Shown here: piece after piece, positions 2,627 to 61,772 of the stretch
Position numbering within the stretch: the first letter of the stretch is position 1
How the letters are laid out: every line of letters starts with the position of its first letter
DNA from: a phage
Reading direction: 5' to 3' (one strand)
DNA: 64,000 bases
NCBI GenBank assembly: GCA_036439915.1
Contig: GCA_036439915.1_3065.1
Position numbers and translations under genes: made by a program
The notes under the pieces: generated by a model
The model's database searches: none
Told to the model about the DNA's origin: nothing
The model's input: only the letters and a program-made list of their open reading frames with translations

Positions 2627-2879
2627 TAATAATCGCCTTATAAAGATGGCTAATTTCGCCTAAAACATAATCACTGATTGTAACAGTTTTCACTTCACCA
2701 CAAAAGAATTCTAACGCAATTAAATCTCGTTCAATTTCTTCTAATTGAAGCCTCAACTTACTAGATTCAATTTTTACATTTCTACGATTTTTACTATAAG
2801 CTATTTCATAAATTTCGCTCACTTTATCTTGAAGCAGATAAAACTGATCTTTAGTTATTTCCACGAATAGCTTCCTCAA
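2619..2879 (-). CDS. hypothetical small protein
   Basis: 86-aa ORF in tightly packed early region. Confidence 0.45.
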   Translation of the reverse strand: MRKLFVEITKDQFYLLQDKVSEIYEIAYSKNRRNVKIESSKLRLQLEEIERDLIALEFFCGEVKTVTISDYVLGEISHLYKAIIND

Positions 2880-3111
2880 ATTTAATTAGTAATTTACAGA
2901 CACTTTCATCTAGTGTAATTACCGTATCTGTATTACTGTGATATGATTGTTTTTCAATTCGTTTAATTGCTAATATAGTATCACTTATAAGATAAAGCTT
3001 ATGAAGGAGCTCAGCTCCTGTTACCATAACATCGAGATTATCTTGCTTATTAGTATGCTTCCTTATACCATCTATTAGACGATTTAAATATTTTGAATTG
3101 ATGTTAATCAT
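2851..3111 (-). CDS. hypothetical small protein
   Basis: 86-aa ORF immediately upstream of dda. Confidence 0.45.
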   Translation of the reverse strand: MININSKYLNRLIDGIRKHTNKQDNLDVMVTGAELLHKLYLISDTILAIKRIEKQSYHSNTDTVITLDESVCKLLIKFEEAIRGNN

Positions 3112-3117
3112 ATAGCC

Positions 3118-4437
3118 TCACACATAAAACACATCATAACGACCACGTGTTACACCAACGTAAAGAAGTTGTTGAGCTAATTCAGCATCTGCATAATGAA
3201 TACAAGGCGTATAAATGAAAGCACGGTCTACAGACATACCCTGAGCTTTATGGAATGTTGATGCAGGAAGTGCTTTCACTTTACTGAACTGTGATTTAGC
3301 ATCCCAAAAATCACTCCATGGAGCTTTTCCGCCTTTGTTCCAATTTTTATAAGTTTCTGCCGTTTTACCTAAAAATAGGTTAAACTTATATAGCTCTTCA
3401 TCAGATGAAATTATTTTAATCTTTTCACGATAATATTCATCATCGCCGTAAGTTTCTACTGTTAAGTCCCAATGACGAATTAGATATTCTCCAGGAACAC
3501 CACGAGCTTTAACAAATGTTGATGTATACTCTGCTTCTATAATACGAACTAATTGTCCATTATTAAAAATAATTTCTGATACAGGCTTTCCATCAATTTT
3601 ATATGTTTTAATTAATGGTTCCTGCATTACAATAATTTCACCAACAATAAAATCTTTATCAGTTTCAAAAATCTTTTTACGAATAATGCTATTTAACTTG
3701 TCAACAGATTTATTCGTAAATGCCATTACGCGATTTTCAAACAAATCATCTAGTGATTTGACGATTGAAAAATAATTTACCATAAAATCGCGTAAAGCGG
3801 TATCACCAGTAAATCCACGTACTCCATGCCCGTCAACAACTTTATCATAAATCCACTTACCGTTGCGAACATCAGTAGCTACATCAATAATAGGAGCATT
3901 ACTGCGTTTAACTTCAGTGAGTTCACACTGATAAAAATCTTTGTGTGTAAAAAATGGACTGATATAAGCAGTGTTTTCTCCTGGGTCAACAGGTCTAATT
4001 TGCTTATTATCACCTATTCCAATTATAGTACACCAAGGTGGAATAGTTGAAAGCAGAATTTTAAATAGCTTTCTATCATACATTGACACTTCGTCGCAGA
4101 TTAATACCCTGCATTTAGCTAAATCTGGTACTTCCTTCTGTTCAAAAAGAACGTTTTCTTCATATGTTACTGGGTTAATTTTAAGAATACTGTGAATAGT
4201 ACTCGCTTCTTTCCCCGACAGTTTTGAAAGAATCTTTTTAGCTGCATGTGTAGGAGCTGCCAAAATGATACCAGTTTCGCCCGTAGATATTAAAGCTTCA
4301 ATGATGAACTTAGTAAGAGTAGTCTTACCAGTACCAGCAGGTCCATTAATAGTTACATGATGTTTCTTTTCTTTAATAGCCCTCATAACGATGTTAAAGG
4401 CATTTTTCTGACCTTCGGTCAAATCATCAAATGTCAT
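3118..4437 (-). CDS. dda: Dda DNA helicase (SF1)
   Basis: 439 aa, Walker A GPAGTGKTT, same length as T4 Dda, synteny. Confidence 0.9.
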   Translation of the reverse strand: MTFDDLTEGQKNAFNIVMRAIKEKKHHVTINGPAGTGKTTLTKFIIEALISTGETGIILAAPTHAAKKILSKLSGKEASTIHSILKINPVTYEENVLFEQKEVPDLAKCRVLICDEVSMYDRKLFKILLSTIPPWCTIIGIGDNKQIRPVDPGENTAYISPFFTHKDFYQCELTEVKRSNAPIIDVATDVRNGKWIYDKVVDGHGVRGFTGDTALRDFMVNYFSIVKSLDDLFENRVMAFTNKSVDKLNSIIRKKIFETDKDFIVGEIIVMQEPLIKTYKIDGKPVSEIIFNNGQLVRIIEAEYTSTFVKARGVPGEYLIRHWDLTVETYGDDEYYREKIKIISSDEELYKFNLFLGKTAETYKNWNKGGKAPWSDFWDAKSQFSKVKALPASTFHKAQGMSVDRAFIYTPCIHYADAELAQQLLYVGVTRGRYDVFYV

Positions 4438-4745
4438 CGTAAATTCCCTGCAATTGGTATACTAACAATACGCCCAGTATCTAAAATTCGCCGATATAAT
4501 CTTTGTGTGTCTACATCAGGCTTAACGTGTTTAACTTCTATTTTATTAAACCAAAACTTGCGTGGAGTTTCAACTAATCTTGGAATTCCCATACCTAAAG
4601 CTAGTCGATACTGCTCTTTAAGAGTGGTAAATACTCTATCAGCAATCTCCCTTTCAAAAAATACAGCAGGACGATGTTCATCAAGAGGAACAGGCACCGC
4701 AAATCCATCTTTATCTCTATACACTATCGCATATACATAAACCAT
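4434..4745 (-). CDS. hypothetical protein (dda.1-like)
   Basis: 103-aa ORF, ATGA-type overlap with dda start region. Confidence 0.5.
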   Translation of the reverse strand: MVYVYAIVYRDKDGFAVPVPLDEHRPAVFFEREIADRVFTTLKEQYRLALGMGIPRLVETPRKFWFNKIEVKHVKPDVDTQRLYRRILDTGRIVSIPIAGNLR

Positions 4746-11275: not shown

Positions 11276-11440
11276 TTACTCTTCTTTTTCTTTAGATTCC
11301 TCTTTTTTCTTTTTAGGAATCTGTTCAGGACCTTTATTTACTACAGCACCTGACGTTGTTCCAGTAGAGATATTTTCAGGATTACCACCTGAATCTCCAG
11401 CAACCATATCTTCTTTAATAAATTCTTTATATGTTTTCAT
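11276..11440 (-). CDS. small acidic peptide with capsid-targeting-like N-terminus (61.1 position)
   Basis: about 54 codons, MKTYKEFIKEDMVAGDSGGNPEN...; coordinates approximate (+/-1). Confidence 0.4.
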   Translation of the reverse strand: MKTYKEFIKEDMVAGDSGGNPENISTGTTSGAVVNKGPEQIPKKKKEESKEKEE

Positions 11441-54701: not shown

Positions 54702-55028
54702 TCAATTAGAAAATAAATTTATCCAAGATTGTTCTTTAATTAAAAACGGCTCAGAATCATATGCCATTAAACTTTGGGTGATTAGTCCTTTAAAAGGACC
54801 ATCAATAAATTCCATGGTAAAATATGGAATTTTATTCATTAATCTTGCATTAGGAGCAGTACACAAAACTCTGCATCCTTTGAATACACCTTTTTGTAAT
54901 TTGTATTGCTTAGGATAAAATTCGCTCAAGACGTTGTTATTTGCCAAAATTTCAAAATGATTCACCAATTTATTTTTAATAGTTTTTGGCGAAAAATAAA
55001 GATATTCGAAAAGCTGTGTGTCTGTCAT
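54702..55028 (-). CDS. hypothetical protein
   Basis: 108 aa from internal Met coupled (TAATG) to upstream gene. Confidence 0.45.
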
Positions 55029-55615
55029 CATTGCATTCCGATTACGAAAAATTGCGGACGAGTAATACCACCAATGCAACATTTAATATTACAGCAGTAG
55101 TGTACAGTGTCAATATGGACGCTATAAATCTTATCCATATCAGGAGATTTAACAGGCTCATCGATTATATACAAAATTCGCGAAAGCGATAAACCTCTGA
55201 ACTTGCTTCCTTTATTACCGATAAAACTACGGACAGAATCAGTAAATAAGCGGAATCGAATATCATCACTAGAATAACGAGAAAATTCTTTTTTAATGTG
55301 GCCCGCAGAAATTTTAGCGTAAGCTGAAGTATTAGAAAGAACAATAACTGTTCCACCGTCATACAGCCAATTAGCAGCAAAGTTAGTCACAGCAGTTGAT
55401 TTACCAGATTGGCGTCCACCATCTAGTCGAAGTGTACAATATTGTTTAAGCAAGTCTTCAAATGGTGGGATATAATCGTTTTTACAAATTTCTTCTACTC
55501 TAGCATCAGAATGGTGTGTAAAAGCATTCATCAGGGATAGATAAGGACCAGTTAAAAATGTTCTCATTTTATTCTCTCTAGGTTTGGGCCATTCCGTGGC
55601 ACATGAATTGTCCAT
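55028..55615 (-). CDS. P-loop NTPase
   Basis: 195-aa ORF; Walker A GGRQSGKST, Walker B ILYIIDEP. Confidence 0.5.
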   Translation of the reverse strand: MDNSCATEWPKPRENKMRTFLTGPYLSLMNAFTHHSDARVEEICKNDYIPPFEDLLKQYCTLRLDGGRQSGKSTAVTNFAANWLYDGGTVIVLSNTSAYAKISAGHIKKEFSRYSSDDIRFRLFTDSVRSFIGNKGSKFRGLSLSRILYIIDEPVKSPDMDKIYSVHIDTVHYCCNIKCCIGGITRPQFFVIGMQ

Positions 55616-55720
55616 TTCTGTATTTACCCATTACCGCACTTGGGCTCGACCTTATTACAGGTTGGCGGGAATCCCTCATAGAATCATGAGGTCCAGCTTG
55701 TTCCCATATTTCTTATTTGC

Positions 55721-56194
55721 TTATTTGAATGATTTGACGTACTGAATAGAACCTTTACTATTCACAAAGGCAATTTTACCATTTTTATTATACATGGTAG
55801 CAGTACGTTGATAACCATAAGTTTGTTTACCAGATTGATAACCAACTAATGCGAAATTATCTTCGCCCATTTTATTCTGTTTAGCGCGAATGCGTTCATG
55901 ACCATGTGCCATAAGAACCTTAGCATCACCAGTTGCAATGGATCGACGAGTTTTTTCATCTTCGACTGTATTAACAAAGTCGTCAAATGAATCAAATTTA
56001 GCGTGAGATTTATTATACAGTTTTCCATCTACTGCATAATTATATCCCTGTACATCCATTTCAACTTCTGTACCATCATCCAATACAGCAGTAATTTTTT
56101 GACCTTTTTTAAATTTCAAAAGATCAGTAAAAGATTCAGCAATAATTTGAGAATTAATAGCTGCTTCAGTGATAAATTCTTGATATGTTTTCAT
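55721..56194 (-). CDS. internal-protein-like protein with capsid targeting sequence
   Basis: 157 aa starting MKTYQEFITEA, the T4 internal-protein CTS consensus. Confidence 0.6.
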   Translation of the reverse strand: MKTYQEFITEAAINSQIIAESFTDLLKFKKGQKITAVLDDGTEVEMDVQGYNYAVDGKLYNKSHAKFDSFDDFVNTVEDEKTRRSIATGDAKVLMAHGHERIRAKQNKMGEDNFALVGYQSGKQTYGYQRTATMYNKNGKIAFVNSKGSIQYVKSFK

Positions 56195-56203
56195 GGGTTT
56201 CCT

Positions 56204-56620
56204 TTAAATGTAAATATTTTTACCGTAATACTTGTACCAGTGTGGCTTCATTAAAATTTTTTCATCAAGTCGTTGTTGACTCAATTTAATAGCTGATTTG
56301 CATGGATTATAATCATTTTTCCATTCTGCTGGAATATCGCTGATGTCAGGAACTTCAGTATCTTTTATACTAAACCCGCGTTTTAAGCATTCCGTTATAA
56401 TGTCTGATTGACGCTTTCGCAAAAATTCTAACTTATCGTAAAAGAACGTAACATGACCAGAACCTAAAATAAACTCGGAAGATATTTTAAAATCTTTAAC
56501 CCGCTTACCATTTGCCACATGTTTACGAACTATACCAAAAACGCGTGGCAATTCACGGTATTCTGCGATTAAATGTTGATCAGCAAGTTCAGATACTAAA
56601 GTCAAATTAATACGAGTCAT
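56204..56620 (-). CDS. denV: endonuclease V (pyrimidine dimer DNA glycosylase)
   Basis: 138 aa [17 protein letters not shown]..., close match to remembered T4 DenV. Confidence 0.9.
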
Positions 56621-56644
56621 TTTATCCCTCCAAGTAACTGTGAA

Positions 56645-56674
56645 TATACTATCACAGTTTTAGGAGAAAGTAAA
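56645..56674 (-). promoter_or_regulatory. sigma70-type early promoter
   Basis: GTTTAC, 18 bp, TGATAGTAT upstream of denV. Confidence 0.55.
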
Positions 56675-56679
56675 CAACT

Positions 56680-57210
<531 letters not shown>

Positions 57211-57666
57211 TTAAAAGAGGCTGTTCATTATTCGGTAAAGTGAAGGACCCATCACATATTGCCACTGAGTACGAGGAATAAGAGCAAAAGCATCCATCTC
57301 TGGAATCATAACGCCATCTTTATTTTCAAAATAAGACTCGCAATGGCAATTTCTGAACATCTCATGCTCTACTGGAATCGTATAATAAAATAACTGTAAG
57401 TCTTTATTACTAGAATATTTAAATACACCTAGGTCTTCTAGAAGGTCTGGATTATAATTGCTAAAGCCAGTCTCTTCTAAACATTCTCTTTTTGCAGCTT
57501 CCAGTGCGCTTAAGTCAGAACTTTCTACACGGCCCTTTGGAATATCCCAGCGATGTGCCATCATTCCAGGCTTACGAGAACCAGTAACCCGACCCATAAA
57601 TAAATCTTTATCTTCTGTCATAAAGATAATACCAGCTGATAATGTTTTCATTTTAATTTCCTGCAT
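57211..57666 (-). CDS. nudE: Nudix hydrolase
   Basis: 151 aa, Nudix box GRVESSDLSALEAAKRECLEETGF. Confidence 0.8.
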   Translation of the reverse strand: MQEIKMKTLSAGIIFMTEDKDLFMGRVTGSRKPGMMAHRWDIPKGRVESSDLSALEAAKRECLEETGFSNYNPDLLEDLGVFKYSSNKDLQLFYYTIPVEHEMFRNCHCESYFENKDGVMIPEMDAFALIPRTQWQYVMGPSLYRIMNSLF

Positions 57667-61048: not shown

Positions 61049-61182
61049 AGTTTTGTGAAAAAATTTTTAAAAAGTTTTGGGGAATTCTAGGGCAGGGAGG
61101 GGAAATCAAAGGATAGGATAATATATTATAAAGGGTAGAAACTAAATGATGTCTAGAGAGGCCTGGAAAGGCCTAGATACCA

Positions 61183-61212
61183 AAAAGCCCCAACCTTTCG
61201 GCTAGGGCTAAG
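61183..61212 (-). terminator. intrinsic terminator after internal-protein-like gene
   Basis: GCCCTAGCC-GAAAGG-TTGGGGC hairpin plus TTTTTGG; near-duplicate of the hairpin at 61741. Confidence 0.55.
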
Positions 61213-61216
61213 AATG

Positions 61217-61690
61217 TTATTTGATTTGTTTAGCAGACCAAATGCGGTCTTTAATAATTTTTTGGATGTCTTCAACATACTCAAGAGAGTGAGCATGTGG
61301 GTTATCTTTGAAACTATAAGCACGAGCTAGTTTTTGGCCTTCAGTTTTGATTACTAAAAGCTCTTTAAGGATAGCTTCATATTTGGAGATAATTCCTTTA
61401 ACAATATTTTTCTCTTGTGCGACTTTAGGATCTGCTTTAGGAGCAGGTTTACCCGAAGCCTTTGCAAAAGCAGCGCCAGTAGCAACTAAACTTTTCCAGG
61501 CCATACTAACTGCATTTCCCGTAAATCCTTCCGCTTTCATGTCGCGTGCGAACTGAAATCGCGATTCATCAGAAGCATCTTTGTAAGAATATTTACCCGC
61601 TGCAATGGCTGCTTTTGCGACAGCTTGAATTTCGGTGCTAGATGCTTCATTTAACACCGCTTCATTTAAAAATTGAGTATATGATTTCAT
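61217..61690 (-). CDS. internal-protein-like protein with capsid targeting sequence
   Basis: 157 aa starting MKSYTQFLNEA; late promoter box upstream; flanked by two similar terminators. Confidence 0.6.
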   Translation of the reverse strand: MKSYTQFLNEAVLNEASSTEIQAVAKAAIAAGKYSYKDASDESRFQFARDMKAEGFTGNAVSMAWKSLVATGAAFAKASGKPAPKADPKVAQEKNIVKGIISKYEAILKELLVIKTEGQKLARAYSFKDNPHAHSLEYVEDIQKIIKDRIWSAKQIK

Positions 61691-61730: not shown

Positions 61731-61738
61731 TATTTATA
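61731..61738 (-). promoter_or_regulatory. late promoter box TATAAATA
   Basis: exact TATAAATA on minus strand about 40 nt upstream of the 61690 start codon. Confidence 0.55.
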
Positions 61739-61740
61739 CC

Positions 61741-61772
61741 AAAAAGCCCCAACCTTTCGGTCGGGGCTAAGC
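61741..61772 (-). terminator. intrinsic terminator closing the tRNA-region transcript
   Basis: GCCCCGACC-GAAAGG-TTGGGGC hairpin plus CTTTTTGG. Confidence 0.6.

Follow-up and report, generated by a model that had tools for sequence, protein, structure and literature searches.

The ip4 gene of T-even phages: a conserved internal protein cassette and a candidate injected inhibitor of modification-dependent restriction

Which protein is encoded by the small gene that adjoins denV in this T-even phage, and what would that protein do in the host? The question arises because the ORF begins with the peptide that targets the internal proteins of T4 to the capsid. Few phage products enter the host cytoplasm earlier than the internal proteins, and all those with a known target disarm restriction enzymes that attack modified T-even DNA. 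A preliminary description of the DNA analysed here (the window, a stretch of 64 kb) had read the gene as a hypervariable member of this class, relocated with respect to its place in T4 and encoding a candidate injected anti-defence protein. Our results indicate that the gene belongs to the class, is strongly conserved and lies where it lies in most related phages; its function is considered after the gene, its targeting peptide and its surroundings.

Identity and conservation of ip4

The ORF occupies 55721..56194 on the - strand and encodes a precursor of 157 aa that starts MKTYQEFITEAAINS. By its database matches it is ip4, a gene that has already been named and that has Pfam and PHROG families of its own. 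The product matches PF24183 (DUF7412) with 319.4 bits against a cut-off of 27 (E 5.7e-96), the alignment running end to end (residues 1-157 on profile positions 1-158), and it matches phrog_3155, described as 'internal virion protein', over its full length (E 6e-102). The proteins of T2, RB18 and RB33 are 100% identical to it, and those named 'Ip4' in RB51 and K3 are 99% identical. The 'Ip4' label is present in the annotations of RB51 (RB51ORF129), ime09 and K3, and the text of the RB51 entry reads 'similar to T2, RB70 Ip4'. Among viral proteins, the sole significant structural neighbour is UniProt Q38388, 'Ip4 [Enterobacteria phage K3]', with 99% identity and a TM score of 0.94. The nearest database genomes have about 97% DNA identity to the window in this region, and their changes within ip4 are synonymous only. 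The nomenclature goes back to Repoila et al. 1994, cited as reference 27 in PMC12373910. Our literature search found no paper that names Ip4 in its main text, nor one that mentions DUF7412 or Ip4 peptides, and the literature searched gave no virion-proteomics or injection data on Ip4.

Searches with tblastn found Ip4 in 471 phage records, in 291 of them at an identity of at least 99%, compared with 261 records for IPIII, and Ip4 is the most widespread ip gene product at the e...vs.8 locus. The DUF7412 family is narrow, with 14 clusters at 61% identity or more among 5.8 billion proteins. Three more distant phage members, at 34-37% identity, came from a profile search among 1.84 billion representatives, whose other matches were one repeat-protein artefact and two fragments. 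The close family has been seen only in T4-like phages. Within it, about 290 Tequatrovirus genomes encode a near-invariant Ip4, whereas conservation is 61-71% in the T4-like phages of Klebsiella, Salmonella and Serratia.

In the family alignment, residues 26-150 are highly conserved, and residues 11-25 form a variable linker. The hypervariability expected from the preliminary description is not seen in ip4, since within Tequatrovirus 11-19 synonymous differences stand against 0-1 non-synonymous ones. The dN/dS ratio lies at 0-0.02 among Tequatrovirus members and reaches about 0.1 when genera are compared, with lower values for the core than for the first 26 codons. Judged by these substitution patterns, ip4 is a real, selected gene under strong purifying selection.

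Targeting peptide and predicted processing sites

The capsid targeting sequence (CTS), MKTYQEFITE, is encoded by codons 1-10 (56165..56194, -) and is followed by a predicted cut of the prohead protease gp21 after E10 (I-T-E/A). When MKTYQEF is back-translated with full degeneracy, the 64-kb window has a single exact match, at 56174-56194 (-), and two matches are found with up to two mismatches, against 0.02 expected by chance. T4 IPII and IPIII start with MKTYQEFIAEA, from which the first 11 residues of Ip4 differ only by A9T. Mutational work on IPIII has assigned targeting mainly to residues 4 and 7 and processing to residues 8 and 10, and the gp21 cleavage motif is L/I-X-E, in which position 9 is the free 'X' (PMC9026906). 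Ip4 retains Y4, F7, I8 and E10, which is the complete residue set of a T4-type CTS, and the reading of the 157-aa ORF as one with the T4 internal-protein start was correct in this respect. E10 does not vary across the family, and all sequences of the close-family alignment have I, L or M at residue 8.

A second predicted gp21 site, I-A-E, lies at codons 18-20 (56135..56143, -), and cleavage there is suggested by its conservation in the family alignment. The pattern (I/L/M)-x-E at residues 18-20 is kept in 12 of 12 close members, in all of which E20 is present, and two of the three distant members have L-N-E at this position. The propeptides of T4 have 10-19 residues (PMC9026906), and hhalign puts the I-A-E20 site of Ip4 onto the I-T-E19/A site of T4 IPI. 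The conserved site, the I-T-E19 layout of IPI and this superposition together point to a probable propeptide of 20 residues, which would leave a mature protein of 137 aa with S21 at its N-terminus and a pI of 9.3. Mature Ip4 proteins have a pI of 9.1-9.3, compared with 9.0-9.7 for IPI*, IPII* and IPIII* of T4.

The distant homologues carry another N-terminal peptide, MNF(E/K)(Q/D)FLNE. In the 34%-identical homologue, which is encoded on a viral contig of 381 kb, MNFEQFLNE replaces the T4-type N-terminus. The N-terminal peptide tracks the phage and the core domain is common, and this gives independent support for a functional address label; the N-terminus of Ip4 behaves as a label specific to each lineage. 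On that contig, IMGVR_UViG_3300011242_000001, positions 2822-4468 contain a cluster of three genes with the variant peptide, twice as MNFEQFLNE and once as MSFTNFLNE, and one of the three encodes the Ip4 homologue. The cluster suggests that both the core domain of Ip4 and the CTS system reach much larger, distantly related phages.

CTS-like starts also occur elsewhere in the window. A second ORF of 157 aa, at 61217-61690 (-), starts with MKSYTQFLNE/AVLNE/ASS, with Y4, F7, L8, E10 and two L-N-E sites. It has an exact late promoter, TATAAATA, at 61731-61738, 41 nt upstream, and is flanked by direct repeats of 36 nt (61177-61212 and 61736-61771, 92% identical), each of which resembles a terminator of the GC-hairpin-plus-T-run type on the - strand. 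This ORF belongs to PHROG 2280, equals RB32ORF132c and is found in 512 phage records, being a 'hypothetical protein' in every record sampled; possibly it is a cassette for an internal protein that has so far gone unrecognised. A shorter ORF of 54 aa at 11276-11440 (-), from PHROG 1823, starts with MKTYKEFIKE/DMVAG, which contains an I-K-E site and is close to a perfect CTS. Its position is remote from the ip loci, directly 5' of the primase gene in the coding direction.

The interval between e and vs.8

The order of genes on the - strand is nudE (57211-57666), e (56680-57174), denV (56204-56620), ip4 and vs.8 (55028-~55567). The T4-type lysozyme gene e has 94% nucleotide identity to that of T4, and the vs.8 homologue (phrog_1488) is the right-hand conserved flank of the cassette interval. 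The spacer between e and denV has 59 nt (56621-56679), in agreement with the roughly 60 nt given in the preliminary description. That description also stated correctly that ipII and ipIII lie between denV and e in T4, where the order is e-ipIII-ipII-denV-vs.8 and ip4 is missing. Its placing of the CTS gene 'upstream' of denV holds in + coordinates only, and on the - coding strand ip4 is 3' of denV. The gene is found in one of the two variable ip loci, the e...vs.8 interval, which is home to ipII and ipIII in T4. No homologue of T4 IPI, IPII or IPIII is encoded anywhere in the 64-kb window.

Both flanks of the interval are 93-94% identical to T4, on one side e down to 56631 and on the other vs.8 with its upstream region from 55709. 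Homology to T4 resumes at that position, 12 nt past the ip4 stop codon, and extends into vs.8 with 93% identity; the DNA found here after the stop codon of ip4 is found in T4 after that of denV. At the other end, ip4 is preceded by an ip-type 5' leader (AAAAATATTTACATTTAAAGGAAAC plus ATG; 56195..56222, -), which is common to T4 ipII and overlaps the last codons of denV. The stretch 56222..56163 comprises the last denV codons, a Shine-Dalgarno sequence and the codons of the CTS, and its 60 nt match the leader and CTS of T4 ipII with 92% identity; for T4 ipIII the match covers 47 nt, 56209..56163, with 89% identity. Given the ipII-like leader at one end and the post-denV sequence of T4 at the other, alignment to T4 delimits ip4 as a cassette of roughly 0.5 kb (~56222..55710) between denV and the conserved downstream region.

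Comparison across phages indicates that this interval is a cassette array, for which at least five arrangements of ip genes and denV are seen. Among the records that cover at least 80% of the query, the window order e-denV-ip4-vs.8 is found in 417 and the T4 order in 31. The gene order of T4 is a minority arrangement, and to call the CTS gene relocated is misleading; the difference is better seen as alternative cassettes occupying a variable ip locus that was already known. In the commonest arrangement ip4 is the only ip gene of the interval. PinkRuby has e-denV-ipX-ip4-vs.8, where ipX encodes 105 aa starting with MKTYKEFIAE; ESh24 has e-ipIII-ip4-vs.8 and is missing denV; Klebsiella Jiaodavirus has e-ip4-vs.8, and Salmonella phage Melville e-ip4-ipY. 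Other CTS genes adjoin ip4 in PinkRuby and Melville, and ipIII adjoins it in ESh24 and in Klebsiella phage Shinkou.

The neighbouring genes have features of their own. The denV gene (endonuclease V) is a divergent allele, with 77% nucleotide identity to T4 in the first 294 nt, beyond which blastn returned no alignment. It is missing from ESh24, Melville and the Klebsiella relatives, and its patchy presence suggests that denV also behaves as a cassette. The annotation of vs.8 in T4 carries an N-terminal extension of 42 codons (MRDSRQPV...). The homologous DNA of the window (55568-55709, -) is 93% identical and has in-frame stops, and vs.8 of RB51 is annotated with a shorter start, MRTFLTG. On both grounds the long T4 start is probably an over-extension, and 55568-55709 probably a conserved non-coding stretch.

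With regard to expression, no exact late promoter is located directly upstream of ip4. The motif TAAAAATA at 56215-56222, 21 nt before the ip4 ATG, is one mismatch away from the late-promoter consensus. It is at most a possible late promoter dedicated to ip4: such motifs occur at a background of 1.66/kb, and PinkRuby does not keep this one ahead of its ip4. The nearest exact late promoter for a possible e-denV-ip4 transcript is the canonical T4 sequence TATAAATA upstream of e (57201..57208, -), which could drive ip4 by read-through.

The spacer between e and denV (56621..56679, -) contains an early-type promoter-like element, GTTTAC...TATATT, inside a strong predicted RNA hairpin, as judged by sequence comparison and folding (dG -23.7 kcal/mol, z -5.3, with none of 200 shuffles as stable). 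The hairpin pairs the denV Shine-Dalgarno sequence GGAGGG, which suggests a promoter-dependent translational control of denV. A like element precedes both ipIII and ipII in T4, which suggests that the repeated spacer element could mediate cassette exchange. After ip4 there is a small hairpin, CCTCAT-GATTCT-ATGAGG (55674..55691, -), whose sequence lies directly 3' of denV in T4. It was rejected as a terminator, being devoid of a T-run and no more stable than shuffled sequences (z -0.6). An Rfam scan of 55000-57300 returned only sub-threshold snoRNA noise.

Possible function and relation to known internal proteins

The preliminary description had proposed a homology search of the mature part. 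The search found no ortholog among IPI, IPII and IPIII, and convincing similarity to them ends at the propeptide. BLASTP of Ip4 against T4 IPIII gave nothing beyond residue ~13, and there is no Pfam match of Ip4 to PF11634 (IPI). A weak gapped BLASTP alignment to IPII that reaches residue 70 (31% identity, 9 gaps) is not evidence of relatedness. The 75% probability that hhalign gave to IPI with full-length alignments came from the propeptide, and it fell to 1.2% over 16 columns once the propeptides were trimmed; homology to IPI* was rejected. Sequence matches in the PDB were weak and spurious, the best being a designed protein (E 5.8e-4) with no stretch that passes alone, and the PADLOC models gave no meaningful match. 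AlphaFold2 predicts a beta-hairpin, three helices and a four-stranded sheet, with moderate confidence (pLDDT 75.7, pTM 0.69). Foldseek of this model against the PDB gave no match, and no informative fold relative was found in the PDB and BFVD libraries.

Recent work bears directly on the class to which Ip4 belongs. According to a study of 2025, Ip1, Ip2 and Ip3 of T4 each inhibit one specific type IV enzyme of the GmrSD family, with no cross-protection, and ip2 and ip3 are missing from T2 and T6 (PMC12373910). Its authors proposed GmrSD variants as the targets of every gene in both Ip loci; when they expressed ip4-10 against a panel of GmrSD enzymes, no reproducible inhibition was observed (PMC12373910, section 10, Suppl. 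Fig. 9). We take the 'ip4' of that study to be the window protein by the shared name. In a phage related to T4, Bas37_0260 shows that the CTS class can target type IV systems beyond GmrSD (bioRxiv 10.1101/2025.11.20.689424). The literature also indicates that IPIII works in the host cytoplasm when its CTS is absent.

By analogy with these proteins, Ip4, the product of one of the interchangeable cassettes of T-even phages, may be packaged, injected and inhibit a modification-dependent restriction nuclease, a proposal that we consider evenly poised between right and wrong. The precursor would be made late and would bind the scaffolding core of the prohead through its N-terminal peptide. The protease gp21 would then trim it after E10 and probably again after E20, and the basic product of ~15.5 kDa would stay in the head with the DNA and be injected with it. 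In the host cytoplasm, Ip4 would most likely bind and block one modification-dependent (type IV) nuclease that cuts glucosyl-hmC DNA. An anti-defence role is the best guess given that Ip1, Ip2 and Ip3 block GmrSD-type enzymes and the Bas37 CTS protein blocks McrBC. The points that favour the proposal are the CTS with its four mapped residues, the ip locus, the ipII leader, the pI and the analogy with Ip1-3. Against it stand the negative GmrSD panel, the lack of homology to IPI*, IPII and IPIII, the lack of an informative fold and of an exact late promoter directly upstream. Purifying selection and near-identity in about 290 phages are not obviously expected of a rapidly co-evolving inhibitor, but IPIII is also well conserved. 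The earlier suggestion of an injected anti-defence protein thus survives as the best guess by class; it is not a new candidate, as the gene is the named ip4 and has given a negative result on the GmrSD panel.

Ip4 could instead be mainly structural or morphogenetic, an abundant basic component of the core that aids prohead assembly or neutralises the charge of the DNA. It would then fill the role that IPIII has in T4 in phages that, like T2, have neither IPII nor IPIII, and any anti-defence role would be absent or secondary. The basic pI, the strong conservation with very low dN/dS and the negative GmrSD panel (PMC12373910) would all fit such a role, as would the fact that the most frequent arrangement has no other ip gene between e and vs.8 and that the window encodes no IPI, IPII or IPIII homologue. 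Nevertheless, some T4-like genomes, including that of T4, have no ip4, and the protein is thus not needed for head assembly as such; ip4 co-occurs with ipIII in ESh24 and Shinkou and is no simple substitute for it; and IPIII, on which this role is modelled, has itself proved to inhibit a GmrSD enzyme (PMC12373910). We regard a mainly structural role as a serious rival, albeit a rather unlikely one. It is more doubtful still that Ip4 is injected and acts on a target outside the type IV systems, such as another early-acting defence or a step of host takeover, since all CTS proteins with a known target (Ip1, Ip2, Ip3 and Bas37_0260) block type IV systems, and the fold matches are too weak to point to any specific alternative.

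The CTS-like start itself might be a by-product of recombination through the ip leader, in a protein that is made late or early, stays in the cytoplasm and is never packaged. Leader and CTS DNA do form a block of 60 nt common to ip genes, which could travel passively. However, E10 and the I, L or M at residue 8 persist even at 61-71% identity, where the DNA block is lost, the CTS of each distant homologue is the variant that belongs to its phage, and the first 10 residues alone are enough to package foreign proteins in T4 (PMC9026906). These observations make a passive origin of the start highly improbable.

Returning to injected inhibition, another form of the proposal is that Ip4 inhibits a defence that has not yet been paired with any internal protein. 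This we put forward tentatively, as a reasonable possibility that falls short of an even one. The targets could include a type IV variant outside the tested GmrSD panel, an McrBC-like enzyme or a non-nuclease early defence. The near-invariance of Ip4 in about 290 Tequatrovirus genomes and its 61-71% conservation elsewhere suggest a widespread and conserved host target rather than a fast-evolving one. If this form of the proposal is true, the fold of Ip4, which has no detectable relative, would represent a new inhibitor architecture. Ip4 is carried by T2 and by many phages that are candidates for therapy, and finding its target would help to explain their host range. The gene and its likely class were already recognised, targeted experiments have been published and the window brings no new kind of object; what is new here are the probable second processing site, the purifying selection, the boundaries of the cassette with respect to T4 and the minority standing of the T4 order.

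Taken together, these data place Ip4 beside several known systems. It is closest to the Ip4 proteins of other T-even phages (Q38388, RB51ORF129, ime09 and T2), with 99-100% identity over the full length and nothing of substance different, and in RB51 the gene is located between denV and vs.8 as in the window. IPII and IPIII of T4 resemble Ip4 in the CTS, which is the same save for A9T, in being small and basic and in their place in the e...vs.8 interval, and ipII shares the 5' leader. They differ in lying on the other side of denV and in having known targets, Ip2 being an inhibitor of GmrSD(ECOR21) and Ip3 of GmrSD(ECOR17). IPI of T4 (PF11634), the inhibitor of GmrSD(CT596), has, like that predicted for Ip4, a long propeptide that ends in a cleavage site around residue 19-20, and both proteins have a short hairpin-like motif, K-G-x-K...L-x-DG-x-E-[VI], just past the propeptide site; unlike IPI, Ip4 is encoded at a different locus and is about twice the size. 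Bas37_0260, from a T4-related phage, is like Ip4 a protein of the CTS type with a sequence unrelated to IPI-III, whereas it is encoded at the ipI locus and inhibits McrBC (bioRxiv 10.1101/2025.11.20.689424).
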